A stretch of 64,000 nt of DNA from Methanobacteriota archaeon (GCA_963719035.1 CAVRAO010000002.1:228144-292143); one strand, 5' to 3'. Shown: positions 4,037-48,864, numbered from the stretch's first letter. The notes: generated from the letters alone by a model not told the origin. Program-made: numbers and translations.

Positions 4037-4111
4037 TAGCGGGGAGTGGATTTGAACCACTGGTCTACGGGTTATGAGCCCGTCGGGATCTCCTGACTAC
4101 CCCACCCCGCT
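4037..4111 (-). tRNA. tRNA-Met (CAU), probably the initiator tRNA
   Basis: A 75-nt cloverleaf with acceptor AGCGGGG/CCCCGCU, an A1:U72 pair, three G:C pairs closing the anticodon stem (ACGGG/CCCGU), loop CUCAUAA and T-loop UUCAAAU. No CCA is encoded. Confidence 0.8.
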
Positions 4112-4773: not shown

Positions 4774-6150
4774 ATGCACGCTGCGATTATCTGCTCAGAA
4801 ATAGACGCCGCCTCGCAAAACGTAGCGCGTCATCTTCTTAAGCGTGTTCCCTGGGCGAGATGTTCAGAAGAACCTGTTCATTGGACGTATGGAAACTTTC
4901 AGTTGCTGGTAACTAAAGGTAGACTCATCAAACAAGAAGCGCTAGATCGAGAGCTTAATGCAGACTTACTCATATTTGCGTCTAGGCACCAGAGCGAGAA
5001 ACGGAAAGGACCTGTATTTACAGCACACTTTACTGGTAACATTGAAGGCCCTCAACAGGTGGTCCCTACCTTAGCGCGCGCTGCTCCTCGTGCATTGAAA
5101 CTTGTGGTAGAAAGGCTCAAACGATTGTCTAGCATTGAAGTCCTAGTCGAGGTAACCCACCACTGTCCTTGCACTATTAACACGCCGTCGCTCTTCGTGG
5201 AGATTGGTAGTTCAAAATCTGAGTGGATAGATGAAGCCCTTGGCGATACTATGGCACAGGCTATTCTCTCGCTAGACTCACCATTACTGAACTCCCAGTG
5301 CGTGACAGCTGTCGGGTTCGGGGGACCGCACTACGCCCTGCGCCACACTGAGGTTCTGCTCGGTAGCGACATTTGTTATGGGCATATTTTTGCTACATAT
5401 CAACTTGAACGGTTATCGCCAGCAATCGTCCAAGAGGCATTCGAGAAATCACCGGCACAATTCGCGTACTTTGACCGAAAACAGATGGGTGCAGAAAGGG
5501 ATCGTTTGCTGTCTATTTTGCATAACTTGGGTTATGAAGTGCTTAGAAAGAGCGACATTGAGGACCATGGAAACGTTTCGTGGGAGCAATATCTCCGAAT
5601 CAGGCGCGCATTGAGATTAAACGGTGTAGTTTTGGATGGAACGCGTATACACGTAAGCGCGTCATTGCAAGACTCCCTCGACGATCCTACCCTGTCAATG
5701 ACCTACTTTGAGTTCAAACGGCTTGATTTAAACCCCGCAATAATCAAACTGGCTCACGCTGTCGATCGTGAATCCTTTAAGCACTTGATTGAAATCGAAA
5801 AAATAGTATACCTGGAACGTAAAGACGGTAACATTCTCGCTATCTTCGTTCCGGCCGAATTCAACTTGCGAGATGTAACAAGCGCCCTGCTACTAGGATG
5901 TATAGAAATACTAAAAAAGCGGTACGAGGTAGAATATTCTCAGCGAAAATCAAAACTATATATATCCGAACGCAAATTTAACGCACGATTAGCACGATCG
6001 CTTGGCGTGGCTGATGGGCCACTATTTGCGAAACTAGCGCACGGAGAGCCGATCAGAATAAATAGCAAGGTAATTAAACCCGAGGATGTATTTACGAAGG
6101 TTAAAAAGGCATTTGATGTCGCTACTGCTGACAAACTCGGTCAACATTAA
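4774..6150 (+). CDS. dtdA: Archaeal-type D-aminoacyl-tRNA deacylase (DtdA)-like N-terminal domain, with a C-terminal extension of about 200 aa of unknown function
   Basis: The N-terminus (IICSEIDAASQNVARHLL...) resembles the archaeal DTD family. Residues ~260-458 have no family I recognise. Confidence 0.45.
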   Translation: MHAAIICSEIDAASQNVARHLLKRVPWARCSEEPVHWTYGNFQLLVTKGRLIKQEALDRELNADLLIFASRHQSEKRKGPVFTAHFTGNIEGPQQVVPTLARAAPRALKLVVERLKRLSSIEVLVEVTHHCPCTINTPSLFVEIGSSKSEWIDEALGDTMAQAILSLDSPLLNSQCVTAVGFGGPHYALRHTEVLLGSDICYGHIFATYQLERLSPAIVQEAFEKSPAQFAYFDRKQMGAERDRLLSILHNLGYEVLRKSDIEDHGNVSWEQYLRIRRALRLNGVVLDGTRIHVSASLQDSLDDPTLSMTYFEFKRLDLNPAIIKLAHAVDRESFKHLIEIEKIVYLERKDGNILAIFVPAEFNLRDVTSALLLGCIEILKKRYEVEYSQRKSKLYISERKFNARLARSLGVADGPLFAKLAHGEPIRINSKVIKPEDVFTKVKKAFDVATADKLGQH

Positions 6151-6156
6151 CATGTC

Positions 6157-7293
6157 TTGAAAACTAAATGTGGAGGATACGACATGAAGTCCATAATTGA
6201 AGACGCGCTTGCACGCGGCGCAAGCGACGAAAAAAGCGAATCACCGCAACGGTCCTATACCGTTGACCAAGAGCTCGAAGAAGTGCTCAAAACGCTACAA
6301 ACAAACATTATCGTTGTTGGATGTGGTGGTGCTGGATCTAATACTATAACGCGAATGATGGAAGAGGGGATAGAAGGAGCTGAACTAATTGCACTCAACA
6401 CGGACGCTCAGCACCTAAGGGGCACGATAGCCGATCGGAAAATCCTGATAGGAAAAGAGCGCACGCGCGGTCTCGGCGCTGGTTCACTTCCTCAAATAGG
6501 GGAAGAAGCCGCTCTCGAAAGTCAAGAGGAACTGCGCGCGAGCGTTGCCGGGGCGGACATGGTGTTTATTACCGCCGGGTTAGGCGGTGGAACGGGCACT
6601 GGTGCTGCGCCTGTCGTCGCAGAAGCGGCACGAGACGCCGGGGCTCTTACAATCGCTATCGTTACACTCCCGTTTAGCGTAGAGGGTATGGTGAGAAGAG
6701 CGAATGCCGAAGCAGGGCTCGAACGGCTTCGTGATATGGCAGATACGGTTATCGTCGTGCCAAACGACCGACTGTTAGAAGTGGTGCCTCGATTGCCACT
6801 ACAAGCTGCGTTTAAGGTGTCGGACGAAGTATTGATGCGAGCCGTTAAAGGTATAACCGAGCTTATCACTAAACCTGGGCTCATTAACCTTGATTTTGCT
6901 GATGTCAGAACCGTTATGCAAAGAGGTGGCGTAGCAATGATCGGGCTTGGCGAGTCTGATGCCGAGGACAAAGCCGTAGATTCAGTGAAGAAAGCCCTGA
7001 GAAGTCCACTATTGGACGTCGATATCTCAGGTGCTACTGCTGCCATAGTCAATGTCATAGGAGGCACAGATATGACCGTGACTGAAGCAGAAGGGGTCGT
7101 GCAAGAAGTTTATGAGCGTATCGATCCCGACGCGCGCATCATTTGGGGCGCACAGATCGATCCCGAGCTGGACCACATGGTGCGGACGTTGCTTATCGTC
7201 ACAGGGGTTAAATCACCTCAGATCTACGGTAAAAGTGAATCACTCAAGATAAAAACTGGGGCTGAAAGGTATGGGATAGACTTCGTCAAATAA
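6157..7293 (+). CDS. ftsZ: Cell division GTPase FtsZ
   Basis: GGGTGTG tubulin signature and NTDAQ motif. The start may be the internal Met at 6184. Confidence 0.9.
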
Positions 7294-11963: not shown

Positions 11964-14102
11964 ATGGTATTGACAGAGGCAGACGCTCGTATAATCACCG
12001 AAGCACTTGGTCGCCAGCTGAATGAAGTCGAAGCTGCGATATTCGAGAATCTCTGGTCCGAGCACTGTGCCTATAGAACAAGCAAACCACTCTTACAAAC
12101 AATGCCCACCCAAGGGGAGTTTGTTGTTGTGGGTCCTGGTGACGATGCCGCTATCATTAAGTTGAGCGACGGACTTGCTCTTGCGATAGCGATGGAAAGT
12201 CACAATCATCCTTCGTACGTTGATCCATATGATGGGGCTGCCACCGGTGTGGGCGGAATCGTTCGCGATGTAATTTCGATGGGAGCTCAGCCAATAGCCC
12301 TCATGGATTGTCTCTATTTTGGAAGTTTGGAGAAGGAGAAAAATCGGTACCTATTTGAGCACGTCATTCAAGCAATTAGCGACTACGGCAACTGTATAGG
12401 GGTGCCTGTTGTTAACGGAGAAGTCTTCTTTCATCCGAGCTATGATGGAAATCCACTCGTTAACGTTGTTTGCGTCGGCCTTTGCCAACTTGATAAATAT
12501 GTTACTGGCCGCGTAAAAAAGCCTGGCAGTAAAATCATTCTTATCGGGTCAACTACAGGCCGGGACGGCTTGGGTGGCGCATCGTTTGCTTCGCGCGATC
12601 TCAGTGAAGAATCTGAAGCTTCTGATAGGCCGTCTGTCCAAATTGGCGACCCTTACACCGAAAAACTGCTCATCGATGCGACGCTTGAAGCAGTCAACCA
12701 AGGTTACGTTCTAGCGTGTCGCGATCTCGGCGCTGCTGGTTTGTCAGGTGCTTCCGCAGAGATGTGTTCTACATTTGGCGGGCGGATAACGCTAGACGCC
12801 ATTCCTTTACGAGAGACCGGAATGACTCCTCGAGAGATATTAGTTTCAGAGTCACAAGAACGCATGGTTTTCGAGGTTTCGCCTGAACACGTTGTCGATG
12901 TGCTTGCCATTGCCAGCAAGTACGATTTGAACGGCGCCGTCATTGGCGAAGTGATCGAAGAACCCAGCTATGTCGTTGAGTTCGGTGGGAGTATAGTAGC
13001 GCATATACCGATAAAACTGCTAACTGAAGGGGCGCCACTTTGCACACCAAAGTGCCCAGAGGTATTGCCGCATACTAAAAAGCCTGCGGTTCATGGAGTG
13101 ACGCTTCAAGAAAAGGCACTGAGCGTACTAACCTCGCCAAACGTTGCTTTAAAAGAGTGGGTTTACAGCCAATACGATCACGAGGTTCAAACGCGAACCG
13201 TTGTCAAACCAGGCGCAGGGGCGGCAGTTATCTCGATCGACGCTTCTCGAGGTATTGTGCTATCTTCTGGCTGTAACGCTACACAAGTGGCAGTAGATCC
13301 ATTTAACGGAGCCGCTGCTACTGTTTTAGAAAATGCAATGAATTTAGCGGTCAAAGGTGCAATGCCCGTTGCGCTCGTCAATTGTCTTAACTTCGGTAAC
13401 CCTGAAAAGGGAGAGATTTTTTTCCAACTTGAACAAGCTGTAAACGGACTCTCTTACGCAGCACACATTATCGAGACGCCCATCGTTGGGGGAAATGTTT
13501 CGCTCTATAATGAAAGCGAAGAGTTCCACACCGCTATAATCCCTACACCGTCAATCGGGATGGTAGGAATTCTCAAAAACGTCTCTAAGGTTCCCTCAGC
13601 TTTTTTCAACCGCGAAGGCGACACCATAGTAATGGTAGGCGAAACGTATCCCGAATATGGGGGATCAGAGTTCGCGGAACTCTTTGGATTAGATGGCTTC
13701 GTTCCAAAGCCACGTGCAGATATCAAGAAAAACATCGAAGCGCTAGTGGAAACTATAGAAACCGGGAAGATCTCAGCTGCTAACGATATTGGACGCGGGG
13801 GTATCTTAAGCACCCTTGCACATATGTGCACACTTTTTGGCGCTAGAGTTGACCTTTCTCACGTTCTAGCAGAAGAGAACGAGTTATTTTCCGAGACGTC
13901 TGGAAGAGCGATCGTGTCTGTCAATAGCAAAGACCTCACCTCTATTCTAAACTTGTTTAAAGAGCGAGATGTTCCGTTTGCTTCTATTGGAACTGTCGGC
14001 AACGATAGCCTCTCTATAGTAATTGGTGATAACACGCTAACGCTCCCGTTAGCAATTATCAAGCGGAGTCTAAATTCTCTCAATGATAGCATGATAGGTT
14101 AA
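11964..14102 (+). CDS. purL: Phosphoribosylformylglycinamidine synthase II
   Basis: 712 aa with the AIR-synthase-related duplicated domain architecture. Confidence 0.85.
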
Positions 14103-15236: not shown

Positions 15237-16406
15237 TTGCACGTAGGTGAAGCTTTAATTGGCAACGATCCTGAAATGGCCCACGTCGACCTCCTTATAG
15301 GAGACAAGGATGGTCCGGTAGGGCAAGCATTTGCTAGTGGATTATCACACCTTTCTCAGGGGCACACCCCTCTTCTTGCTGTGATTAAGCCAAATTTGTT
15401 AACAAAGCCTGCAACTCTCATCGTGCCTAAGGTCACGCTGCAAGACAGAGAACAGATAGCGAAGGTGTTCGGCCCCGCTCAAGCTGCTGTTGCCAAAGCA
15501 GTCGCGGACTCTGTCGAAGACGGAGTTATCGCAAAGGAAATGTGCGAGCAATACGTACTTATCGTATCAGTCTTTGTTCATCCGGATGCGCAGGACTATG
15601 AAAAAATCTACCGTTATAACTACGGTGCTACGAAATTGGCGATAAAACGGGCATTAACCGACTTTCCTTCGGTGGAAAAAGTTCTCTACGAAAAAGACCG
15701 GTCGCTCCACCCGGTTATGGGATTCAAAGTCTCTCGTCTGTGGGATCCGCCATACCTGCAAGTAGCATTCGATTTGACTGAGTTAGACTTAGTATTGAAC
15801 GTTCTTGATCAACTGCCTATAAGCGATCATATAATTCTTGAAGCAGGAACGCCCCTTATCAAACGTTATGGGCTAGGAATCATCAGAGAAATGCGAAAAG
15901 CTCGATCGAGTGCCTTTATCGTAGCTGACCTTAAAACACTTGATACTGGGAACTTAGAAGCGCGATTGGCCGCGGATGAAGCTGCTGATGCCGTTGTGGT
16001 CTCTGGACTTGCGCCTACATCAACGATTGATAAGGCTATAGAAGAAGCAAACAAGACCGGTATCTATGTTATTATCGATATGTTAAATGTCGACAAGCCA
16101 GAAAGCGTACTCAAGGCGCTGAAGAGCAAACCCGATATCGTAGAACTCCACCGAGCGATCGACGCCGAGGATACGGCGCACGCGTGGGGCAACATCGCTA
16201 CCATAAAGAAATACGCAAAATTAGTCGCTGTAGCAGGAGGGATACGACAAGACAACGTAGAAGATGCTCTGAAGTCGGGAGCGGACATTTTGGTAGTAGG
16301 ACGTGCCATTACAGCAGCACGAGATGTAGAAGGTTCTGCACGGGTGTTTCTAGAAGGATTAAAGCAGAGCGATATCGATCAATACCGGGTTAAAACTGAC
16401 TTTTAG
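15237..16406 (+). CDS. fae-hps: Bifunctional formaldehyde-activating enzyme / 3-hexulose-6-phosphate synthase (Fae-Hps)
   Basis: N-terminal Fae signature ([20 protein letters not shown]) fused to an OMP-decarboxylase-fold Hps domain, 389 aa. Confidence 0.8.
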
Positions 16407-26756: not shown

Positions 26757-28100
26757 ATGTCAGTTCATCCAATAGAGTACCGCTACGGCACTAGCGAGAT
26801 GAAAGCCATTTGGAGCGAGGACTGTAAACTCCGCTACTTGCTTGAGGTGGAAGTAGCTCTTGCCAAAGCCGAAGCTGACCATAAGCGTATCCCTAGAAAG
26901 GCAGCAGATGAAATCGAAACGGCGGTAAGCAAAGTTACACGTACGCGCGTTGCAGAAATTGAAGACGAAATCCACCACGACATTATGGCCGTCGTTAAAG
27001 CGATTTCAGAACAGATTAGCACTGAAAATGACTACGTACACTATGGTGCGACGTCAAACGACATTATCGACACTGCACTTGCGCTCCAATTGCAAGCTTC
27101 GTTGAGAATACTCGCGTTAAAACTTAAACGTCTTAGAACCGTTTTGGCAAACCTTGCTGACGAAAACAAGGCTCGTGTATGTGCAGCAAGAACACATGGT
27201 CAAATTGCCGTACCAACTACCTACGGTATGCGATTCGCCGTTTGGGCGATGGAAATCGATCGACATTTGCATCGGCTTTTCGAATCCCGCAAGCGGATCG
27301 AAGTCGGGCAAATGACAGGAGCTGTCGGGACACAAGCAGCTTTTGGAAAAAAAGGAGTAGAAATTCAGGCGCGAACGCTCGAGTTGCTTGGGCTAGGATC
27401 AGTGGAAGTATCAACGCAAATCATCCAGCGTGATCGGCACGCTGAATACGTAATGTTGCTCGCTAACGTCGCAACTTCGCTCGAGAAAATATTTATCGAA
27501 ATCAGAACACTCCAAAGAAGTGAGATAGCCGAAATTTCAGAAGGTTTCGGGAAAAAACAGGTTGGGTCTTCAACGATGCCGCATAAGCGAAATCCAATTA
27601 AGTCAGAACAAATCTGCGGCCTCGCACGAGTCGTACGATCGTTTGTGCTTCCCTCATTAGAAAACAACACGTTATGGGATGAACGAGATTTGACAAATTC
27701 TTCCAGTGAGCGGATTATCTTTCCTGAAACAACTATTTTAACAGACCACATAATCACACTCTCCATTGACGTGCTAAGTAACTTGGAATTCAATGAAGAA
27801 CGTATAAAACAGAACCTCAGCCTCATGCGAGGATTAAACATGAGCGAAGCAGTAATGATACAGTTGACTAAGAAAGTCGGGCGTCAACGCGCTCACGAAA
27901 TTATACGCACAGCTACAATGGATGCTTACGCTCGTGGAGACGCCCTTTCAGACACATTGCTCAAAGAGCCCCTCATTGTGAAATATTTTTCCAAAGACCA
28001 GCTTGAGTGGATGATCCTCCCTGAGAATTACATAGGAACGGCTATTGAGCAAGTTGAGCGAGTTGTAACGCTTCTGAGGCAGAACGAGTGTCTGGAATAG
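26757..28100 (+). CDS. purB: Adenylosuccinate lyase
   Basis: Fumarate-lyase family with GSSTMPHKRNP. Confidence 0.85.
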   Translation: MSVHPIEYRYGTSEMKAIWSEDCKLRYLLEVEVALAKAEADHKRIPRKAADEIETAVSKVTRTRVAEIEDEIHHDIMAVVKAISEQISTENDYVHYGATSNDIIDTALALQLQASLRILALKLKRLRTVLANLADENKARVCAARTHGQIAVPTTYGMRFAVWAMEIDRHLHRLFESRKRIEVGQMTGAVGTQAAFGKKGVEIQARTLELLGLGSVEVSTQIIQRDRHAEYVMLLANVATSLEKIFIEIRTLQRSEIAEISEGFGKKQVGSSTMPHKRNPIKSEQICGLARVVRSFVLPSLENNTLWDERDLTNSSSERIIFPETTILTDHIITLSIDVLSNLEFNEERIKQNLSLMRGLNMSEAVMIQLTKKVGRQRAHEIIRTATMDAYARGDALSDTLLKEPLIVKYFSKDQLEWMILPENYIGTAIEQVERVVTLLRQNECLE

Positions 28101-29401
28101 TTGGAGCTATTGGAGTATGCGCCTACGAATCCGTCTTAAAGATGTGCAAGACACTCGCACATCGGGGAAGCGTGCATCGATCTATCCGCGGAGAGCTAGT
28201 TAAAGGGACAGAGTATGCTGTTAGCACTCTTGGGCTCGCAACACTTCGAGAAGTGTCTGATCCGCACGGTTCGGTACTCTCAGCTTCTGATAGTTATTAC
28301 ACAAGCTACGCTCGAGCGCGCATCATAAACTCTCTTGTTTTAAAACTGGACAGGGACGTTATAGGACCACGTCCGCTGTTCTACGGCGTAAACGATGCGA
28401 ACTCGCTTTGCGCGTTTGCCTCTGAACGTAAAGCACTCTGGTCTGTTGGAATTAAACACCCGCAACGGGTTAATCCGAGAACAGTGGTAACAATATCTGG
28501 ACTGCAAGATATCGATGTGAAGATCAAAAAAACCCCTGAGCTATTGCACAAAAAGCTAACGTTTAACGACGAATCAGAGCTAGTGAGCGATTTACGCAAC
28601 GTCCTTGAATGTGTTTTGCATAACTTAGATCAGGAACATATGAGCGTTGCGTTCTCGGGGGGAGTTGATAGCGCTTTGCTTTGTAAATTGATGTCTAATT
28701 GCGTGAATAAAAACTGTTATGCAGTAGGATTTTCTGAATCGCACGATTTAAACAACGCGCAACACGCAGCACGTTTATTAAAGGTCGATCTTCAAACCAT
28801 TGAGCTGAACGAATATGATCTTGAAGTGTTCATACCCGTTGTTATTGAAGCTATCGAAAGCTATAGCCCCCTCGATATCGCTATCGCTTTGCCGTTTTAT
28901 GTCCTAGCTGAGCAAGCAGAAGCCGCTGGTTTTACGTCTGTTTTAACTGGACAAGGGGCTGATGAACTATTTGCAGGTTATTCCAAATACGCAAGTTTGC
29001 ACTCGGCACCGAACGACACGCTTAATAACGTGCTTGAAATGGACGTACTTAACATCGCAAGAGATAATCTTGAACGGGACAACTTAGCTGCAGCAGCGCA
29101 TTCGTTAGACGTCGTTCTGCCATATCTAGATCCAAGAGTTGTTGTTTTCGGATTGGCGCTTGACGCTAGTTGGAAACTCCACAATGGGATTAATAAATAT
29201 GTGCTCAGGAGGGTGGCTGAACAAGTTATGCCACACGAACTCGCTTACAGACAAAAAAAAGCGATACAGTATGGCACAGGAGCAAGTTCAATGTTGCAGA
29301 AATTGGCGCGCAAAAAAATGCGTTCAGTAAACAGCAGAGGAGTATTAAGGCTTTATTTGCGATCAATTGCAGAAAAACAAGGTATAATGGTAGCGGAATG
29401 A
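28088..29401 (+). CDS. Asparagine synthetase (AsnB)-like PP-loop amidotransferase. The predicted N-terminus is Met-Ser, so the canonical Cys nucleophile is absent.
   Basis: SGGVDS PP-loop and a shortened class-II GATase-like N-domain. The GTG start overlaps the purB stop, and the 3' end overlaps the gatC start. Confidence 0.6.
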   Translation: MSGIVGAIGVCAYESVLKMCKTLAHRGSVHRSIRGELVKGTEYAVSTLGLATLREVSDPHGSVLSASDSYYTSYARARIINSLVLKLDRDVIGPRPLFYGVNDANSLCAFASERKALWSVGIKHPQRVNPRTVVTISGLQDIDVKIKKTPELLHKKLTFNDESELVSDLRNVLECVLHNLDQEHMSVAFSGGVDSALLCKLMSNCVNKNCYAVGFSESHDLNNAQHAARLLKVDLQTIELNEYDLEVFIPVVIEAIESYSPLDIAIALPFYVLAEQAEAAGFTSVLTGQGADELFAGYSKYASLHSAPNDTLNNVLEMDVLNIARDNLERDNLAAAAHSLDVVLPYLDPRVVVFGLALDASWKLHNGINKYVLRRVAEQVMPHELAYRQKKAIQYGTGASSMLQKLARKKMRSVNSRGVLRLYLRSIAEKQGIMVAE

Positions 29402-29664
29402 TAATCAAAAACGATGTTGAATATATAGCGCGGCTTGCTTGCATTGAGCTTGATGATGAAGACCTCCAAGAGTTTACGATTCAATTAAATACCATACTTG
29501 AATATTTCGAAGAACTTGAAAATGTCGAAGCGGAGCTAACACACGAAGAGGAAGGCAATGTGCTACGCGGTGACAATATCACGCCGAGCTTATCACAGCA
29601 AGAAGCCCTATCTAACGCTCCGCGAGTCGATAGCGGCTATTTTAGGGGCCCCCGTATACTATGA
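29398..29664 (+). CDS. gatC: Asp/Glu-tRNA amidotransferase subunit C
   Basis: 88 aa with GatC-like sequence, and its stop overlaps the gatA start. Confidence 0.75.
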   Translation: MIIKNDVEYIARLACIELDDEDLQEFTIQLNTILEYFEELENVEAELTHEEEGNVLRGDNITPSLSQQEALSNAPRVDSGYFRGPRIL

Positions 29665-31038
29665 GCCATCGAGAACGTATCGAGAGAGCGCTTGAAACAA
29701 TCGAACGCAGTGACCTTAACGCGTTCATTACGGTCGATCATGAAGGTGCGAGGCGGCAAGCTGCAGAAGCTGATGCAGGCAACATAGATGGAAAATTAGC
29801 CGGTCTGGCAGTCGCTATTAAAGACGCCATTTCAACCAAAGGGCTGAGAACCACGTGCGCTTCGAAGATGCTTGAACATTACGTGCCCCCCTACGACGCA
29901 TTTGTTATTCGGAGACTCCGCGCAGAAGGCGCCGTTTTAATTGGCAAGACGAATATGGACGAATTTTCTATGGGCGCATCAACAGAGACGAGCTTCTTCG
30001 GGCCTTGTAAGAACCCTTGGGATATTAACCGCGTGCCAGGCGGCTCATCTGGAGGCAGTGCAGCTTCTGTAGCTGCATACGAAGCAGATCTCGCATTAGG
30101 TTCCGATACAGGAGGATCAATCAGATGTCCTGCGTCTTTTTGCGGCGTAGTAGGGTTGAAACCGACATATGGCAGGGTTTCACGAAGCGGACTTATTTCG
30201 TATGGTAACTCATTAGAACAAATCGGTCCTATCGCACGGACAGTTAAAGGGTGTGCTACGTTGTTTGAGGTTATTGCGGGCCACGATCCCGCAGACAGCA
30301 CCTCGCTCAATCAACCTACGCCTCGCTACTCCAAATCATTATCAAAGGATATCACTGGTTTGAAGATCGGCGTGCCAATCGATTTTTTTGGTGAAGGGGT
30401 CGATCCAACCGTGGAAAACGCCACACGGGATGCAATAGACGTGCTTGTGGATTTAGGAGCGGAGGCACTTGAGGTGTCAATGCCCAGCTTACAATATGCA
30501 CTTTCCGCCTATTACGTCCTAGCGATGTCGGAAGCCTCGTCTAACCTAGCTCGGGTACTGTGGAATCATCTACGGGCACAGAGTTCAAAAAGATCATGAT
30601 TGGCATCGAACATTCTCGGAGAATAGAGCATTTGGATTTGGAAAAGAGGTTAAAAGGCGCGTGCTTCTCGGGACGTACGCGCTCTCGGCGGGATATTACG
30701 ACAAATATTACCTGAAGGCGCTCAAAGCACGTACGCTGATTAGGGCAGACTTTCAGAGAGCTTTTCAACAACATGATGTACTAATCGCACCAACGATGCC
30801 CCACATTGCATTTAAACTTGGAGAGAAAATAGAGGACCCCTTAGCATTGTACAAGGTGGATATTAACACCGTTCCAGTTAATCTTGCGAACGTTCCAGCG
30901 CTTTCCATTCCGTGTGGTGAGAAGGAAAGGTTGCCAATTGGCATGCAAATCATTGGTGATCGACTCAAAGAGACGCTGTTGTTCAACGTTGCGTGGCAAT
31001 TCGAGCACAACACCAAGTTCAATAAATACGCTGAGTGA
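29661..31038 (+). CDS. gatA: Glu/Asp-tRNA amidotransferase subunit A. Frameshifted.
   Basis: The amidase signature is split between ORFs 29661..30599 and 30661..31038. The +1 frame across the gap reads YDGIIYGHR...FGFGKEVKRRVLLGTYALSAGYYD (GatA consensus). There is an extra G in the GGG run at 30553-30555. Confidence 0.75.
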
Positions 31039-31240
31039 TTGCGGAGCCGCATCGTAAATTCTATTGGAAGAGAGTACCTCAAAGATTCAATTTTTTGCCA
31101 ATGGCGTCAAAGGATCGCGTATTTTGCTAAAAAAATTAAGCAAGTCGAACATTTCTTAAAGTACGTCTTGCGTCGAACAATGGTTTTTTTTTGAATCAAA
31201 TATATGTAGCGCGGAAAACATAATTCCATAGGGTGAACAT

Positions 31241-31603
31241 ATGGCTGATGCTAAAGATCTTATACGTAAATTCGAATATGGAGAGAAATTAAAGTCCGAA
31301 GTGTCCATAGCAAATCAACTGCTAGAACAACTTATTGGACTGAAAGATGACCAATTTGTTGGCGGCCTGAGGATTTTAGAGGCGTATTTAAATTCACTTA
31401 TAATGGAAATTAAACTCGCACAAAAAGTGCTGGGTTCTAAAGTATATTTTTCAAAAACCGCGCGTAAACTAACAGAAGCAGTAGGAAGAATCACGCTTAA
31501 GGAGTTTGACGAAGCAAGAGCGTGTTTCGCTGAAGCACTTAATGATGTTACCACAGTCTGCGCTGAGTCATTTGACGCATTAGCCAAACTGAAGTTGATG
31601 TAA
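31241..31603 (+). CDS. Hypothetical protein, alpha-helical
   Basis: Isolated ORF of 120 aa with no family I recognise. Confidence 0.3.
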   Translation: MADAKDLIRKFEYGEKLKSEVSIANQLLEQLIGLKDDQFVGGLRILEAYLNSLIMEIKLAQKVLGSKVYFSKTARKLTEAVGRITLKEFDEARACFAEALNDVTTVCAESFDALAKLKLM

Positions 31604-31713: not shown

Positions 31714-32971
31714 TCAAAACAGCCACGCAAGAGTTGACAATGGCGTAGAAGTTGTAGGGTGGAGGGGCACTCTTAATTGAGAGAAGATGCCTAAGTACCG
31801 GCGGGCAATTCTATCCCAAGTAATGGATTGAGCGTATTCATACACTTGGCGGCTCATCGCATTTCGAAGCTCATTATCGCTAACTAAAAGGTTAATTTTT
31901 TCAGCAACGTCCTCAGGATAGCCAAACCTCACCAACATGCCTCTGCCTTGTGACAAGACTTCTGCCGCGTGTGTAAACTCCGTAGCTACAATACTCTTTC
32001 CGCAGCCAATTGCTTGAGATAAAACACCGCTTGATATTTGATTGGGATTTGTGTTTGTCACCGCGCATATATCAGTTGCTAAAAAGTGCGCGATCATCTC
32101 TCTATTTGGCAGGTAGCGCTGGACGAATACGACGTTTTTTGCAAGTCCAAGGCTCTTTACGAGGCTGTCAAGCTTGTCCTTGTATCGCTGTCGCACTTTT
32201 TCGTCAAGAGCTGGATGTGGCACTCCAACGACCATGTTACGTTATGTCTTTGTTTGGATTGGCGTCAATAATAGAAGGTAAAGCTTCTATAACGGTCTCT
32301 ATCCCCTTGTCCGGATTAATTAAACCGTAGCTAGCGATCACAAACTTTCCAGACAAGCCTAAACGCTTTTTCGGCAACGTTGTGTCAATAAAAGGCACCG
32401 CTGGTACCCCGTGCGGGATGAGCGTGAGCTTTTTTTTGTCTAAGCCATAAGTATTGTTTAAAAGTTCAATTCCAGCATATGCCGATGTGACGACCGCATC
32501 TGACAACGCGTAAATGTCTTTCACGACGTCCCTCATTCCAAGCGGTGGATTGGGCAAGATCGTGTGCAGCGTAGTGACTATAGGCTTTCTTACTCGGCGC
32601 ATGAATTCCAAAATGTAGCTGCCAAAGTCGCCTTTATAAAGCCCAAACTCGTGCTGAATATTTATAACGTCAATTTTGGAGCTGTTTATCTTATCAGCAG
32701 CGGCTATGTAACTTTTGACGTCACAATCTTTGATGACGTTAAACGTTTTTGAGATGAAACGCTTGCTAAGCACAAATTCTTTTTTGCTTAGTTGCGCCAC
32801 CTGTTCTCGTAGAGAAGCGTTACTCAAAAAAAGATTCTTGCACTCTTGAACAACGTTGACATTCCAAGTAATATTATCTGCAACATTCGAGATGCTTGCA
32901 GTAAGATCGTTTGTGAAAGTCGCGATACCGCATTCCCGAGGGGGAAACGAACTTACAAAGTTCAAACTCAA
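31714..32971 (-). CDS. Glycosyltransferase family 4. Frameshifted, with an inserted base creating TAA.
   Basis: ORF 32237..32971 is the GT4 N-domain (SFPPRECGIATFTNDL) and ORF 31714..32235 is the GT4 C-domain. A TAA and one extra nt separate them at 32236-32239. Confidence 0.65.
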
Positions 32972-37678: not shown

Positions 37679-40346
37679 CTATGTTCGTTTGACAATAATT
37701 GTCCCTTCGCTTAGCTTAATAACGTCGACGACCATTCCCTCCACAAACAGCTCTTTTTTAACAATGAAATCCGTCGGCAAAAACTCATGACCGTTAATCC
37801 TGACCGATCCCGTTCCGATTTGATCCGCGATTTCCTCAACAGGAACGCTTTTTATTAACTCTGCTACACGCATTGCTTCAGACTTAAAACGCGGACCTAA
37901 CGAACCAAGATTTGGACTAATTTCAGATATATGCTCGAGAATATCTGGTTTGCCTGTCCTATATTCAATATCGGCATTGAGCGTATTATTAATATCTGGC
38001 GCTCCGGTAGACATATCGCGATCTAAATACACATAAAGCCCTTCAATTCGAGCGTTCAGTGCGATGCGTTGCTCAGATTTGTATCGCCTAACACTGGCAA
38101 TAATTTCTTTAACTAGCTCTCCTGTGCGACGGGCTTCCTGGACGTCTTTTTGAGACGCTGCTATGGCTATTTGCTGAACATCCCCTGTGGTGGTTGTCGA
38201 TTCGGTAGAAGTCACGCCGAGTGGTTTTAGGCAAAGAACAGGCCACGAGTGTAAATGAACACTTTCATCGCCGGGGTTTATGTGCGAAAACAACTCCTCC
38301 GAAAAGAATGGACAAAATGGTGCTAGCAGCTTGGCAATCGTATTAAGCGCGAGGTGTAAAGCAGCGAGGCTGTACGCGTCCCGTTCATAGAGCCTTCCTT
38401 TAACCGCTTCGATATAATGGTCAGCTAATATATTCCAAACGAAAGATCGAATTTCTTTAAGGGCCTCGTCAAAGGCAAACCGGTCCATACTGGAGGTGAC
38501 AGAGTCAACCAGCTCAATAAGATTACACATTAACCATATCTCACTTGGATTTTGAGATCTATAAATGACTGGCTGGACTCCTTGAGTGAAATGTAACATG
38601 GCAAATCTAAAGATATTCCAAAGCTTGGTTAAAAATCTTGAAGAGGCTTTCAAGTCTTTTGTGTTATATGGAACGTCAGATCCAACTGAGCCCCCTATTG
38701 CTGCCCATTGCCGAAGCGCGTCCGTGCCATATTGCTCAATAACGCTTTCAGGAGCGACGATATTACCAAGCGACTTGCTCATCTTCTGGTTGTCTTTACC
38801 GAGTACCATCCCATTGACTAAAACGCTTTCCCAGGGCTTGCTCCCCACGAGAGCGTCTGATCGTAGTATTGTATAAAACGCCCATGTCCTAATGATGTCG
38901 TGACCTTGTGGCCGCAATTGAGTGGGAAACTGTCGCTCGTACTGAGCGTTAGGCCAACCTGCTGCATTTAGAGCAGAGAGCGATGAGTCCATCCATGTGT
39001 CTAATACGTCGTATTCAGGTGTAAAACTCGATGACCCGCATTCACAAACACGGGCAGGAGCTTCTTGAGTGGGATCCAAAGGCAACCAACTTTCTTCAGC
39101 AACCACGACCGTATCACATCCGTCACAGTACCAAACTGGAATAGGTGTAGCGAAAATCCGTTGGCGAGAGATACACCAGTCCCACTCGACGCTTTCAGTC
39201 CAATTCTTCAAGCGATGCAATGAGTACCGACGGGATCCACTCAATCTCTGATGCTCGAGCGAGTATTGTATCCTTATTAATCTTTACAAACCACTGGCTC
39301 TCAGAAAGGATCTCAATCGGGGTTTTACATCGATCGTGAAATCCCACATTCTGCTCAATGCGTTCCTGTTTTTGTAAGAGCTTACCGTTAAAAAGATCTC
39401 CGATAATGCGCTCTTTTGCCTCGCCAATGGTTAGGCCGCTGTATCGTGTATCAGTCATGCGGCCATCTTTTCCAATCACTTTTTTAAGTCGCAGATTGTG
39501 CTTTTTCCACCAGCGCACGTCTTGCTTGTCGCCAAATGTGCAGATCATCACTACGCCAGTGCCAAACGTGGGATCAACCGCTTCGTCGCCAATTATGGCG
39601 ACCTCCTCATCATAAAGGGGCGTTCGTACTGTCCCGCCAATTAAACGGACATAGCGTTCATCACTGGGGTTAACTGCAACAGCAACGCAAGCACCTAAAA
39701 GTTCGGGACGCGTTGTAGCTATTTCGACTGATCCTAAGTCGCTGCTTTCAAAAAAAAGATGATGAAGAATGGTCGACCGTGAGTCATAATCTACTTCAGC
39801 AAATGCGATAGCCGTCTCACAGCGTGGGCACCAGTTTACGGGGTGCTCATCTTTGTAAATGAGGTCGTTATTATACATTTGCACGAACGATTTCTGCGTC
39901 TTAGCGTAGTAGGCCTTATCCATAGTCACAAACTCTTGCGACCAATCTATGGAAAAAGCAAGACGCTGCATCGTTCCCTTCATCAACGCAATGTTTTCTC
40001 GAGTCAAGCTTTCGCACAGCCCTCTGAATTCTGCACGTGGGATCTGGTTTTTCGTTACATTGTAGGTTGTTTCGACCTTTACCTCAGTCGGAAGCCCGTG
40101 ACAGTCCCATCCTTGCGGAAATTTAACGTCACAGCCCTTCATACGCTTATAGCGCGCGATGAAGTCTATATAACACCAATTAAGGGCGTTTCCAAGGTGA
40201 AAATTACCAGTTGGATATGGCGGCGGCGTATCGATTATAAAGCGCTCTTTTATTTCCCCGCCGCGATAACGATACATGTCCGAGTCCCAAGCGGTCAGCC
40301 ATTTTGACTCAATGTATTCATAATCAAAGTTCTTTGGTATAGCCAT
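37679..40346 (-). CDS. valS: Class-I aminoacyl-tRNA synthetase, most likely valyl-tRNA synthetase. Frameshifted.
   Basis: ORF 39195..40346 carries the HLGN (HIGH-type) N-terminus and ORF 37679..39244 carries WDWCISRQR and KMSKS. The join ...EIEWIPS/YSLHRLKNW needs one G removed near 39226-39234. The total is about 890 aa. Confidence 0.7.
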
Positions 40347-47018: not shown

Positions 47019-47668
47019 AACCTCACGACTTCTTGAACCACGAGCTTCGCATCTCGTTTCTTAAGGTCGTAGTCATGACTAGCAAGAAACGTTTTGATCT
47101 TAGTACGATCACCGCTATCTATCTGTCCCCTCAACTCAGCTGTCTTTAAAACTAATGGAAAGCTTCGTTCCATATAAAAGAAGCTCTTTGCGAGGTTAAG
47201 CAAAGCGTTGCTCATGTCTCTGTCCACAATTGAAGCGTCTAAGAGTGAGTGTAAGGCAACGCGTATATTGATGAGCGGTTCGGATACAGGCTCGTAAGTG
47301 ATTGGGTTGTACGCCACGGCAACTTCATCATCTGCTTCAATAACTCCCTCTTTAAAACACGTATAGATCTTCCCGACTCCAATCATCCCGAAACTGTCGA
47401 GTTCAGAGGCGCGCAACGCCCCCATGCTTGATCCACCAACAACAGTCACGCCCGACTTAATTGCACCTATTATTTCTCGATGTGAAACCGCAGCACGATT
47501 AAAAAAAACGCCGTCAATCAATCCGATGATCGATATGCCCGTTTTAGCCGCTTTCAAGATATCTCCTCGTACGGCGGGGGGGCAGCATCTTATCCTTTGA
47601 TCAGCGGAAGACACTTCAGACCAAGACAAACTTGGACCTGTAAATATTACGCAGTCACATTTCGCCAT
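46988..47668 (-). CDS. tfuA: TfuA-like protein
   Basis: 226 aa of TfuA family, overlapping the ycaO stop. Confidence 0.7.
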   Translation of the reverse strand: MAKCDCVIFTGPSLSWSEVSSADQRIRCCPPAVRGDILKAAKTGISIIGLIDGVFFNRAAVSHREIIGAIKSGVTVVGGSSMGALRASELDSFGMIGVGKIYTCFKEGVIEADDEVAVAYNPITYEPVSEPLINIRVALHSLLDASIVDRDMSNALLNLAKSFFYMERSFPLVLKTAELRGQIDSGDRTKIKTFLASHDYDLKKRDAKLVVQEVVRFCDRQHSVQP

Positions 47669-48864
47669 TCTTTGTAGCGCGTTCCTTTTCGTTCCCGATC
47701 CAAGAAATAGACCTCAAAGCCTGGTATAGTTGCACGAACTACGGGAACACGAATAGCGCTTACTGTTATATCAGAGATAATAACGCTGTTTGCCACATTT
47801 TGCAAGCGCTCGAGGACGATTCTGATGTCACTGTCGATAGATGTAGTTGCCATAGCTTCAAGTTCGTCGAGCTCGATCATCTCGCGTGGTTTTTCTAACC
47901 AATGCTTATTGAGCCTTTTCATCCTCTCATACCCAATCATTCGGGCTACCGATTCCCGATTGGTGTCTTCACGAGCGCCGTGAATCTGTGTAGCTCGCGA
48001 CTGCGCCACTTCAGTCAGTGCTCTAAGCGCGGCAATTTCGGGATCGGTATGACTTCCGGCCCCCATAACCAATAAAGAAGCATCACGCATTTTTTCGTCA
48101 TCTGATGCTGCCACAATAGTTGGAACGCCAGTATCAGTGCGGAGCGACCACAGCCGAACGACAACGCCTTGCTGCTCAAACTTGTCGATTATTTCGCTAA
48201 CTCGACCTGCACCTACGTTGAGACCTAAACCGGGGTTGCGGTTTATCTCTGCAATGCTTACTGCGTCTCTCTCAATTACCTCCATCAGGCCATGAAAGAT
48301 CGCCTCTTCCATTACGTTGCCTGATGCAAGACCATTTGTATTGCTTCTAAAGAGCTGCCAATTACCTCGCACTGGCGAATAAGGATGAAAAACGGCGTTT
48401 GCCGGAACAATTACCTCTTCATCGTTAAGAAGGTCCCACCCTGGGTACCACTCAATTTTTGTATCGGTAGAAAGGTAGCCCGGCAATATGAGATCAGTGG
48501 GATTAACGGCGCGATTTTCTCCACTAAGGTGCGCGTATGAATCGAACAATAATTGCTCCTTGAGATTTCCAACTTCAGCAGAGAACCGTTCGACAGCCTC
48601 CATTATCACCGAAACGCGGGCTTCCGTTTCACTTGTGCCCTTGCCAGCATACACAGAAATAGCACCGTCTGCTGCCGACGGCCTTATAGCAGAAAATACG
48701 GGCAACCCTATGCGATCTAGCCCGGAAATATCTGCTATCCGTGTTATCCCAACCTCTGGTACGGCTGCCTGAACACGTTCTAGTGTCTCTGCTGGCGGTA
48801 TCACCCTGTGCGTATCAATGCAATACGTCTTTGGTGCAGTGTGCAGTTCAATCTTGCTTGTCAT
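47647..48864 (-). CDS. ycaO: YcaO-domain protein (methanogenesis marker 1; McrA glycine thioamidation)
   Basis: 405 aa YcaO ATP-binding domain immediately followed by tfuA. Confidence 0.75.
   Translation of the reverse strand: MTSKIELHTAPKTYCIDTHRVIPPAETLERVQAAVPEVGITRIADISGLDRIGLPVFSAIRPSAADGAISVYAGKGTSETEARVSVIMEAVERFSAEVGNLKEQLLFDSYAHLSGENRAVNPTDLILPGYLSTDTKIEWYPGWDLLNDEEVIVPANAVFHPYSPVRGNWQLFRSNTNGLASGNVMEEAIFHGLMEVIERDAVSIAEINRNPGLGLNVGAGRVSEIIDKFEQQGVVVRLWSLRTDTGVPTIVAASDDEKMRDASLLVMGAGSHTDPEIAALRALTEVAQSRATQIHGAREDTNRESVARMIGYERMKRLNKHWLEKPREMIELDELEAMATTSIDSDIRIVLERLQNVANSVIISDITVSAIRVPVVRATIPGFEVYFLDRERKGTRYKEWRNVTA

Follow-up and report, generated by a model that had tools for sequence, protein, structure and literature searches.

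The question raised by this locus is whether an archaeal asparagine synthetase-like gene that lacks its catalytic cysteine is real and, if it is, what role such proteins play in archaea that make asparagine on tRNA. The gene lies at 28088-29401 on the plus strand of a 64,000-nucleotide stretch of a Methanobacteriota archaeon assembly (GCA_963719035.1, CAVRAO010000002.1:228144-292143), referred to here as the window, directly upstream of the amidotransferase genes gatC and gatA. A reading of the window made from the sequence alone had described an AsnB-like protein that starts at GTG and reads Met-Ser-Gly-Ile, without the Cys nucleophile of class-II glutamine amidotransferases (GATases), and this is borne out by the open reading frame (ORF) list and the raw sequence (first codons GTG TCT GGA ATA, N-terminus MSGIVGAIG). 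The lesson for the locus itself is modest. On the comparative evidence this is a conserved, real archaeal gene, and its missing Cys is a conserved trait, not an error; loss of the glutaminase site is common in the family.

Results

Glutaminase site

The features of the AsnB-like gene (asnBL) are as follows.

28088-29401, plus strand: AsnB-like ORF, 437 amino acids (aa), GTG start
28088-28093, plus strand: start codon GTG and codon 2, TCT (Ser; Cys in class-II amidotransferases)
Residues ~1-165: degenerate N-domain of the N-terminal nucleophile (Ntn) type
Residues ~166-437: synthetase domain
28652-28672, plus strand: PP-loop FSGGVDS, residues 189-195, ATP pyrophosphatase motif
28952-28954, plus strand: codon for Gln289, equivalent to E. 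coli AsnB Glu348 and human ASNS Glu364 (HMMER alignment to 1CT9)

The homologue search covered 5.8 billion protein clusters and returned a compact set at 38-100% identity, drawn from JGI, ENA, NCBI and Logan assemblies. Position 2 is Ser, Pro or Ala, and never Cys, throughout the more than 70 clusters of homologues (38-92% identity) that come from independent assemblies, and the N-termini all fit (M/V/L)-(S/P/A)-G-I-(V/A/I)-G; Cys-bearing sequences (MCGIAG) are confined to identities below ~41%. At seven loci the start codon is GTG, ATG or TTG at one aligned position, followed by TCT, TCA or CCT as codon 2. The sequence-only reading had considered that TCT might be a misread TGT and had proposed a homologue alignment as the check. 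No single base change converts TCA or CCT to a Cys codon; the Ser codon is genuine, and the agreement of independent assemblies on Ser, Pro or Ala, together with the deletions described below, refutes that alternative.

Alignment with Cys-bearing relatives shows that the GHxxLxITGD, NGEIYN and SDTE segments, which carry the Gln-binding and oxyanion residues of class-II GATases (Arg49, Asn74-Gly75-Glu76 and the Asp98 region), are deleted or unrecognisable. These deletions shorten the N-domain to ~165 aa, against ~190-245 aa in Cys-bearing relatives, and the Pfam model GATase_7 matches only below its threshold (residues 86-117, 17.6 bits where 25 are required), in keeping with the shortened GATase domain that had been described at the outset. 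Some Ntn hydrolases employ Ser as their nucleophile. Here Ser2 is excluded from such a role, since Pro and Ala, which are incapable of it, occupy the same position in relatives and the active-site loops are deleted.

What is left of the N-domain is under purifying selection and is not decaying. Many of its residues are invariant in an alignment of 29 clade sequences (for example the RDxxGxxPLFYG...AFASERKALW block), the ratio of nonsynonymous to synonymous substitution rates (dN/dS) against the 92%-identical relative L081 is 0.24 in the N-domain and 0.18 in the synthetase domain, and the AsnB-like ORF is unbroken in all loci. In an AF2 model of the protein (mean pLDDT 88.7, pTM 0.89) the N-terminal blocks mostly score above 88; the domain that has lost its glutaminase site is thus modelled as folded.

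Cys-less forms are common in the subfamily to which the protein belongs: of the 150 closest representatives of 50%-identity clusters, about 98 lack Cys2 in an N-domain of full length and 27 carry the Cys. Dead or missing glutaminase domains are also familiar elsewhere in the AsnB superfamily, as in beta-lactam synthetase, CarA and the lasso cyclases. Since glutaminase loss is frequent at both levels, the absence of the Cys is in itself no surprise.

Synthetase domain and family assignment

The ORF matches PF00733 (Asn_synthase, E 5e-47, Pfam), and its synthetase domain contains SGGVDS, GQGADELF and KKAIQYGTG. Foldseek places 1CT9 (E. coli AsnB) as the best match of the AF2 model (E 4.5e-24, TM 0.77) and also returns 6GQ3, 1MC1 and 1Q19, and over its full length the model can be superposed on E. 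coli AsnB, human ASNS, beta-lactam synthetase and CarA (TM 0.70-0.78). The predicted structure has the two-domain AsnB fold, in which an Ntn-type N-domain precedes a PP-loop ATP pyrophosphatase domain.

A profile of the clade was aligned to E. coli AsnB (1CT9) with HMMER and is gapless across the key motifs. The PP-loop residues S190, G191, G192, D194 and S195 (SGGLDS in E. coli AsnB) are invariant in the 29 clade sequences, as are D292, E293, R330, K370 and K390. The correspondences, with the E. coli residue given first, are listed below.

PP-loop SGGLDS: clade S190-S195, kept
Asp351: clade D292, kept
Glu352: clade E293, kept
Arg387: clade R330, kept
Lys429: clade K370, kept
Lys449: clade K390, kept
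Glu348 (SGEGSDE motif): clade Gln289 (TGQGADE), changed
Lys376: clade Asp319, changed
Asp384: clade Asn327, changed

The sequence-only reading had called the PP-loop synthetase domain intact. This holds for SGGVDS; the domain as a whole is not canonical, with Gln289 at the position of E. coli Glu348. These nine positions, the changed ones included, read the same in most of the ~200 archaeal relatives tabulated, with or without Cys2, and at the 21 positions compared the synthetase-site residues are identical between the two groups. Asp319 and Asn327 differ in some lineages: position 327 is Thr or Ser in the Nitrososphaera group and Gln in haloarchaea and Methanoregula, and the protein of Methanosarcinales archaeon Met33H has Gly319 and Asp327.

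As a working definition, we assign to an archaeal AsnB-like subfamily those proteins that have GQGADELF, NLERD and KKAxQYG in the synthetase domain, with Q289, D319, N327, R330, D331, K390, K391, Q394 and Y395 as signature residues. The signature is identical in the window protein, all clade members and most archaeal relatives, Cys-bearing and Cys-less alike, and the peptide patterns match at least 600 stretches in genome representatives. We place the window protein in the AsnB structural superfamily, as a member of this widespread archaeal subfamily. Of the features that define a glutamine-hydrolysing AsnB (EC 6.3.5.4), it has the PP-loop SGGxDS and the Lys equivalent to E. coli Lys449; it lacks Cys1, the loops of the glutaminase site and the catalytic Glu, and it falls short of the curated score. 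With four defining features failing, the protein should not be filed as AsnB. Its score against NF006949 is 151.3, below the cut-off of 499 (NCBIfam), and the lasso-peptide/macrolactam cyclase models NF033535 and NF033561 are likewise far from their cut-offs (55 bits against 525, and 35.6 against 300). Cys-bearing members of the subfamily exceed the cut-off of the AsnB equivalog TIGR01536 (289 and 307 bits against 267.1), so annotation pipelines name them asparagine synthase. The residue comparison suggests that the automatic label 'asparagine synthase (glutamine-hydrolysing)' is unsafe for the subfamily and may be wrong throughout it.

Gene neighbourhood

The genes and signals around asnBL in the window are listed below.

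26757-28100, plus strand: purB (adenylosuccinate lyase), which opens the string of overlapping genes (Pfam Lyase_1 E 1e-52, ADSL_C)
29398-29664, plus strand: gatC, 88 aa (PF02686 E 2e-15; TIGR00135 67.4 bits against a cut-off of 47.1)
29661-31038, plus strand: gatA, frame broken in the window, two Amidase/TIGR00132 fragments (396.1 and 135.6 bits)
31184-31192, plus strand: T9 run ~150 nt 3' of gatA, from the T-run listing

The GTG start of asnBL sits inside the 3' end of purB with a 13-nt overlap, which makes the four genes a single overlapping string; the sequence-only reading had not remarked on purB. Downstream, the stop codon of asnBL runs into the start of gatC, and that of gatC into the start of gatA, through a shared 4-nt ATGA at each junction (29398-29401 and 29661-29664); these two overlaps had been noted in the sequence-only reading.

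Exact-sequence look-ups of homologues at 92, 70, 59, 49, 44 and 38% identity revealed one common neighbourhood, in the order ProRS, S3Ae, phosphoglycerate mutase, purB, AsnB-like, gatC, gatA, a 120-aa ORF, glycosyltransferase (opposite strand) and inositol-1-phosphate synthase. The string purB-asnBL-gatC-gatA is present with identical overlaps in loci L081-L090 (the 13-nt purB overlap recurs in L081 and L083-L090, and the two 4-nt overlaps likewise), and the proposed check on synteny with gatCA was positive in every clade member examined. The linkage of asnBL to both purB and gatCA is a stable trait of the whole clade, which at 50% clustering consists of three full-length representatives separated from all other sequences by a score gap from 328 to 213 bits.

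Oligo-T terminators are in use in archaea, and on this basis the T9 run at 31184-31192 is a candidate terminator that would close the purB-asnBL-gatC-gatA unit. A 120-aa ORF at 31241-31603 on the plus strand, which has no significant Pfam family, follows gatA in all clade loci examined, and a T6 run and the T9 run stand between the two. No gatB was found among the window ORFs checked or after gatA in the window or the clade loci examined. In archaea GatCAB acts in the Asn-tRNA route, whereas GatDE produces Gln-tRNA; the sequence-only reading had merged these two routes into one and was correct for Asn-tRNA. Around the AsnB-like gene there is no precursor peptide or biosynthetic cluster, the neighbours being housekeeping genes.

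Elsewhere in the window are an archaeal-type D-aminoacyl-tRNA deacylase (4774-6150, plus strand), FtsZ (6157-7293, plus strand), PurL (11964-14102, plus strand), a Fae-Hps fusion (15237-16406, plus strand), YcaO (47647-48864, minus strand) and tRNA-Met(CAT) (4037-4111, minus strand). YcaO and the Fae-Hps fusion are consistent with a methanogen or methanotroph close to Methanosarcinales/Methanocellales. An Rfam scan of the 64-kb window gave a single tRNA and nothing else, rRNA included.

Other archaeal relatives

A scan of species-representative genomes yielded, among the matches listed, distant relatives only (no more than 37% identity), and the window clade was not among them. Several of these wider relatives also have an AsnB-like gene ahead of gatCA. 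In the Methanocella locus L004 and the Methanocella-like contig L091, a Cys-bearing AsnB-like gene is followed by gatC, gatA, gatB and topA. The order AsnB-like-gatC-gatA-gatB-topA recurs in the complete 987,146-bp genome of Met33H (L030; CP061209.1, 6007-9951), where the AsnB-like protein is reduced to 291 aa, the synthetase domain alone, and its gene overlaps gatC. Two Methanoregula loci (L040 and L067) have N-truncated AsnB-like genes that overlap gatC ahead of gatCA, and in five haloarchaeal loci N-truncated genes lie 2-5 kb upstream of gatCA. The Cys-bearing copies of Methanosarcina and Methanoperedens are unlinked to gatCA.

Linkage was counted over loci with usable flanks; these counts, like those for the 150 nearest representatives, are phylogenetically non-independent, and the tree of the relatives is no more than a neighbour-joining sketch.

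Cys-bearing, unlinked to gatCA: 37 loci
Cys-less, unlinked to gatCA: 29 loci
Cys-less, tightly linked to gatCA: 13 loci, 10 of them from the window clade
Cys-less, near gatCA: 5 loci
Cys-bearing, tightly linked to gatCA: 3 loci

Loss of the Cys as a consequence of gatCA linkage is unsupported, given the 29 unlinked Cys-less loci and the prevalence of Cys-less forms among the 150 nearest representatives. Linkage to gatCA(B) predates the loss: since relatives have both Cys-bearing asnB-like-gatCAB strings and a synthetase-only one, the arrangement in the window looks inherited from an older asnB-like-gatCAB order and not newly invented. The AsnB-like protein is not a substitute for GatB either, since the two coexist with gatC and gatA in L091 and L030.

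Adjacency of an AsnB-like gene and purB recurs in a distant phylum in another orientation. In about 20 Bathyarchaeia-type loci a Cys-less AsnB-like gene stands head-to-head with purB, mostly at ~30-120 nt, with a few pairs farther apart or overlapping (L025, L034, L035, L042, L044, L048, L052-L054, L057-L060, L062, L069, L070 and L072-L074).

Frame breaks in the window

The sequence-only reading had gatC-gatA run through to 31038. The gatA gene is indeed there, and what that reading did not remark is that its frame is broken into 29661-30599 (312 aa) and 30661-31038 (125 aa) by an extra G at 30553 (region 30550-30556), where the window has CTCGGGTACTG and the 93%-identical DNA of L081 has CTCGGTACTG. 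Removing this G restores an intact GatA of 458 aa with the amidase motifs AIKD, GGSSGGSAA and GSDTGGSIR, and gatA is intact at 456-461 aa in L081, L084, L085-L088 and L090. The same insertion occurs at ~7470 of L083, an ENA contig from a relative at 70% identity, and not in L081 or L084. Two genomes that are not sisters share the extra base at the same position, which is better explained by a systematic error of base calling or assembly than by a pseudogene or a programmed shift, and the frameshift is probably such an error; a programmed shift is also judged unlikely because the closest relative, L081 (92% protein identity), does not have the G.

Over 11 kb, the sole other coding indel relative to L081 is one extra G at 32236. 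It splits a family-1/4 glycosyltransferase on the minus strand (31714-32235 and 32237-32971) that is intact at 433 aa in L081. A class I aminoacyl-tRNA synthetase (tRNA-synt_1 and Anticodon_1) is likewise split between overlapping minus-strand ORFs (37679-39244 and 39195-40346), a third probable frameshift. To judge from these comparisons, the window does have base-level errors, in the form of indels at other positions, and codon 2 of asnBL is unaffected.

Discussion

The window ORF is most likely a functional, vertically inherited member of the archaeal AsnB-like subfamily. We consider it on balance probable, though far from assured, that the protein is an ammonia-using amidoligase, with its substrate left open and aspartate as the default. 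In a methanogen- and anaerobic methanotroph (ANME)-like clade of Halobacteriota, the glutaminase half has been disabled by replacement of Cys1 with Ser, Pro or Ala and by deletion of the Gln-binding and oxyanion loops, and the N-domain remnant has been retained as a folded structural module. The PP-loop would bind ATP, a carboxylate (by default, and insecurely, that of aspartate) would be adenylated, and the activated carboxylate would capture ammonia to give an amide, most likely on the same substrate as in the Cys-bearing relatives, for which the identity of the synthetase sites argues. With the protein's own glutaminase gone the ammonia would have to come from outside, and free NH3/NH4+ would be the simplest source; 'ammonia-dependent' is in our view the most economical reading. 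Its transcription and translation are probably coupled to those of purB upstream and of gatC-gatA downstream. The comparisons establish that the gene is real and conserved, with stable synteny, a lost glutaminase site and a predicted AsnB fold; catalytic competence, the nitrogen source and the substrate are inferred, aspartate being the least secure step. Boehlein, Richards and Schuster (JBC, 1994) are said to have found that the C1A and C1S forms of E. coli AsnB lose glutamine-dependent activity and retain ammonia-dependent activity. PMC3261824 cites Boehlein 1994 solely for the loss of function upon replacement of the Cys.

Several observations weigh against this proposal. Gln289, where AsnB and ASNS have the canonical Glu, is near-universal across the archaeal relatives tabulated, and Asp319 and Asn327 in place of E. 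coli AsnB Lys376 and Asp384 leave both the aspartate substrate and the canonical mechanism unsecured. The window protein scores 165.5 bits against TIGR01536, under the cut-off that Cys-bearing members exceed (NCBIfam), and no biochemically characterised member of the subfamily was found in the searched literature. Archaea with GatCAB usually lack AsnRS, and free asparagine then has no obvious translational use. Human ASNS E364Q is inactive even with ammonium chloride, the Glu being deemed essential to catalysis (PMC6748925). A Gln at this position throughout the subfamily makes the substrate uncertain. The term 'asparagine-synthetase paralog' in the sequence-only reading is right as to the AsnB family and may overstate the function, since the subfamily has Gln where the E-to-Q change inactivates the human enzyme.

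The same residues are the chief argument for a substrate other than aspartate throughout the subfamily, possibly one connected with translation, which would make 'asparagine synthetase' a misnomer. Asn is generally made on tRNA in these archaea. Gln289, Asp319 and Asn327 replace AsnB Glu348, Lys376 and Asp384 in most relatives with or without Cys2, operon linkage with gatCAB recurs, and AsnB modules are fused to DUF71 (Dph6-like) in Methanohalophilus and Methanosalsum (PMC3541065); the inactive human E364Q enzyme points in the same direction. Cys-bearing members nevertheless score above the AsnB equivalog cut-off, the AsnB pocket residues Asp292, Glu293, Arg330 and Lys390 are retained, and no neighbouring gene points to an alternative, and we regard a different substrate as unlikely, yet worth serious attention. 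We hold as improbable a coupling to GatCA, the second option of the sequence-only reading, in which the GatA glutaminase, held by GatC, would feed ammonia both to GatB and to the AsnB-like synthetase, which could then do without a glutaminase domain of its own. It would fit the 4-nt asnBL/gatC and gatC/gatA overlaps, conserved down to 38% identity, the amidase motifs of the reconstructed GatA, and the dead, truncated or absent N-domains found ahead of gatCA in the window clade, Met33H (L030), Methanoregula (L040 and L067) and, at 2-5 kb, haloarchaea. However, Cys-bearing homologues also sit within gatCAB strings (L004, L091 and L049), Cys-less homologues abound away from gatCA in the counts given above, the upstream coupling to purB is equally tight and purB is implausible as a complex partner, and no fusion protein or sign of an interface was found. 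A broader conjecture, that the whole subfamily is an amidoligase of the Asn-tRNA machinery and not a free-asparagine synthetase, with the Cys-less gatCA-overlapping forms fed by a GatCA shared with GatB, strikes us as decidedly improbable.

A protein that does not amidate at all could be an intramolecular ligase of the beta-lactam synthetase or lasso cyclase type, or a non-catalytic scaffold or regulator of the Asn-tRNA machinery. Beta-lactam synthetase and CarA, both of which retain a dead N-domain, match the predicted fold nearly as well as AsnB does (TM 0.70-0.75). Against this, the synthetase site is identical to that of Cys-bearing relatives whose working glutaminase implies ammonia transfer; with the site shared and ammonia delivered in those relatives, the Cys-less members most probably carry out the same amidation and not a cyclisation. 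The cyclase models also stay far under their cut-offs and the neighbourhood holds no precursor peptide or biosynthetic cluster, and a non-amidating role thus appears very unlikely. It is scarcely credible that the missing Cys is an artefact, whether a TCT error or a decaying pseudogene, or that Ser2 acts as an Ntn nucleophile. The probable single-base indels in gatA (30553) and the glycosyltransferase (32236) and the split class I synthetase do lend the first idea some colour, as does the use of Ser by some Ntn hydrolases for the last, but independent assemblies agree on Ser, Pro or Ala with TCA or CCT among the codons, dN/dS is ~0.2 over an ORF uninterrupted in all loci, and Pro or Ala could not serve with the oxyanion and Gln-binding loops deleted.

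If the proposal of an ammonia-using amidoligase is right, one lineage of methane-cycling archaea permanently co-expresses a glutamine-independent amidoligase and the glutaminase subunits of its Asn-tRNA amidotransferase. In the series that runs from a full glutaminase through a dead remnant and a truncated domain to none, each ahead of gatCA(B), the loss of a domain can be followed as a natural experiment. The searched literature contained no paper on an asnB-gatCA(B) operon; there, both the AsnB-like gene before gatCA(B) across several methanogen lineages with graded loss of the N-domain and the subfamily-wide Glu-to-Gln change appear to be unreported.

Comparison with known systems

Like AsnB (1CT9) and human ASNS (6GQ3), the window protein has the two-domain fold, the PP-loop SGGxDS and the equivalents of Asp351, Glu352, Arg387, Lys429 and Lys449. 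Unlike them, it has no Cys1, its Gln-binding loops are deleted, it is ~120 residues shorter, and it carries Gln for Glu348/Glu364, Asp for Lys376 and Asn for Asp384. The Cys-bearing archaeal 'short AsnB' of Methanocella, Methanosarcina and Methanoperedens (P0096, P0090 and L001-L007) are closer, with the same synthetase signature (21 of 21 positions identical) and, in the Methanocella-like forms, the same position directly upstream of gatC-gatA. They differ in keeping MCGIAG, NGEIYN and SDTE and in passing the equivalog cut-off. The C1A and C1S forms of E. coli AsnB share a substitution at the nucleophile. They are point mutants made in the laboratory, in which the rest of the glutaminase site is intact, whereas in the window clade deletions have eroded the site and its eroded state is conserved over long evolutionary distances.

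Beta-lactam and carbapenam synthetases keep a dead N-domain and use the adenylating domain alone, cyclising their substrates from within antibiotic gene clusters. They (1JGT and 1Q15) resemble the window protein in having the AsnB fold with a catalytically dead N-domain; the sequence similarity is weak (E 4e-16), and the active site of the window protein is instead that of its glutamine-using relatives. With respect to GatCAB operons, the gatC and gatA of the window are ordinary members and in relatives the AsnB-like gene heads gatC-gatA-gatB; the AsnB-like protein corresponds to no known GatCAB subunit. The AsnB-DUF71 (Dph6-like) fusions of Methanohalophilus and Methanosalsum, for which the GAT-II domain of the AsnB module was proposed by the authors as the ammonia source (PMC3541065), are alike in tying an archaeal AsnB-like module to a translation-related amidation enzyme, and differ in doing so by fusion and not by operon.

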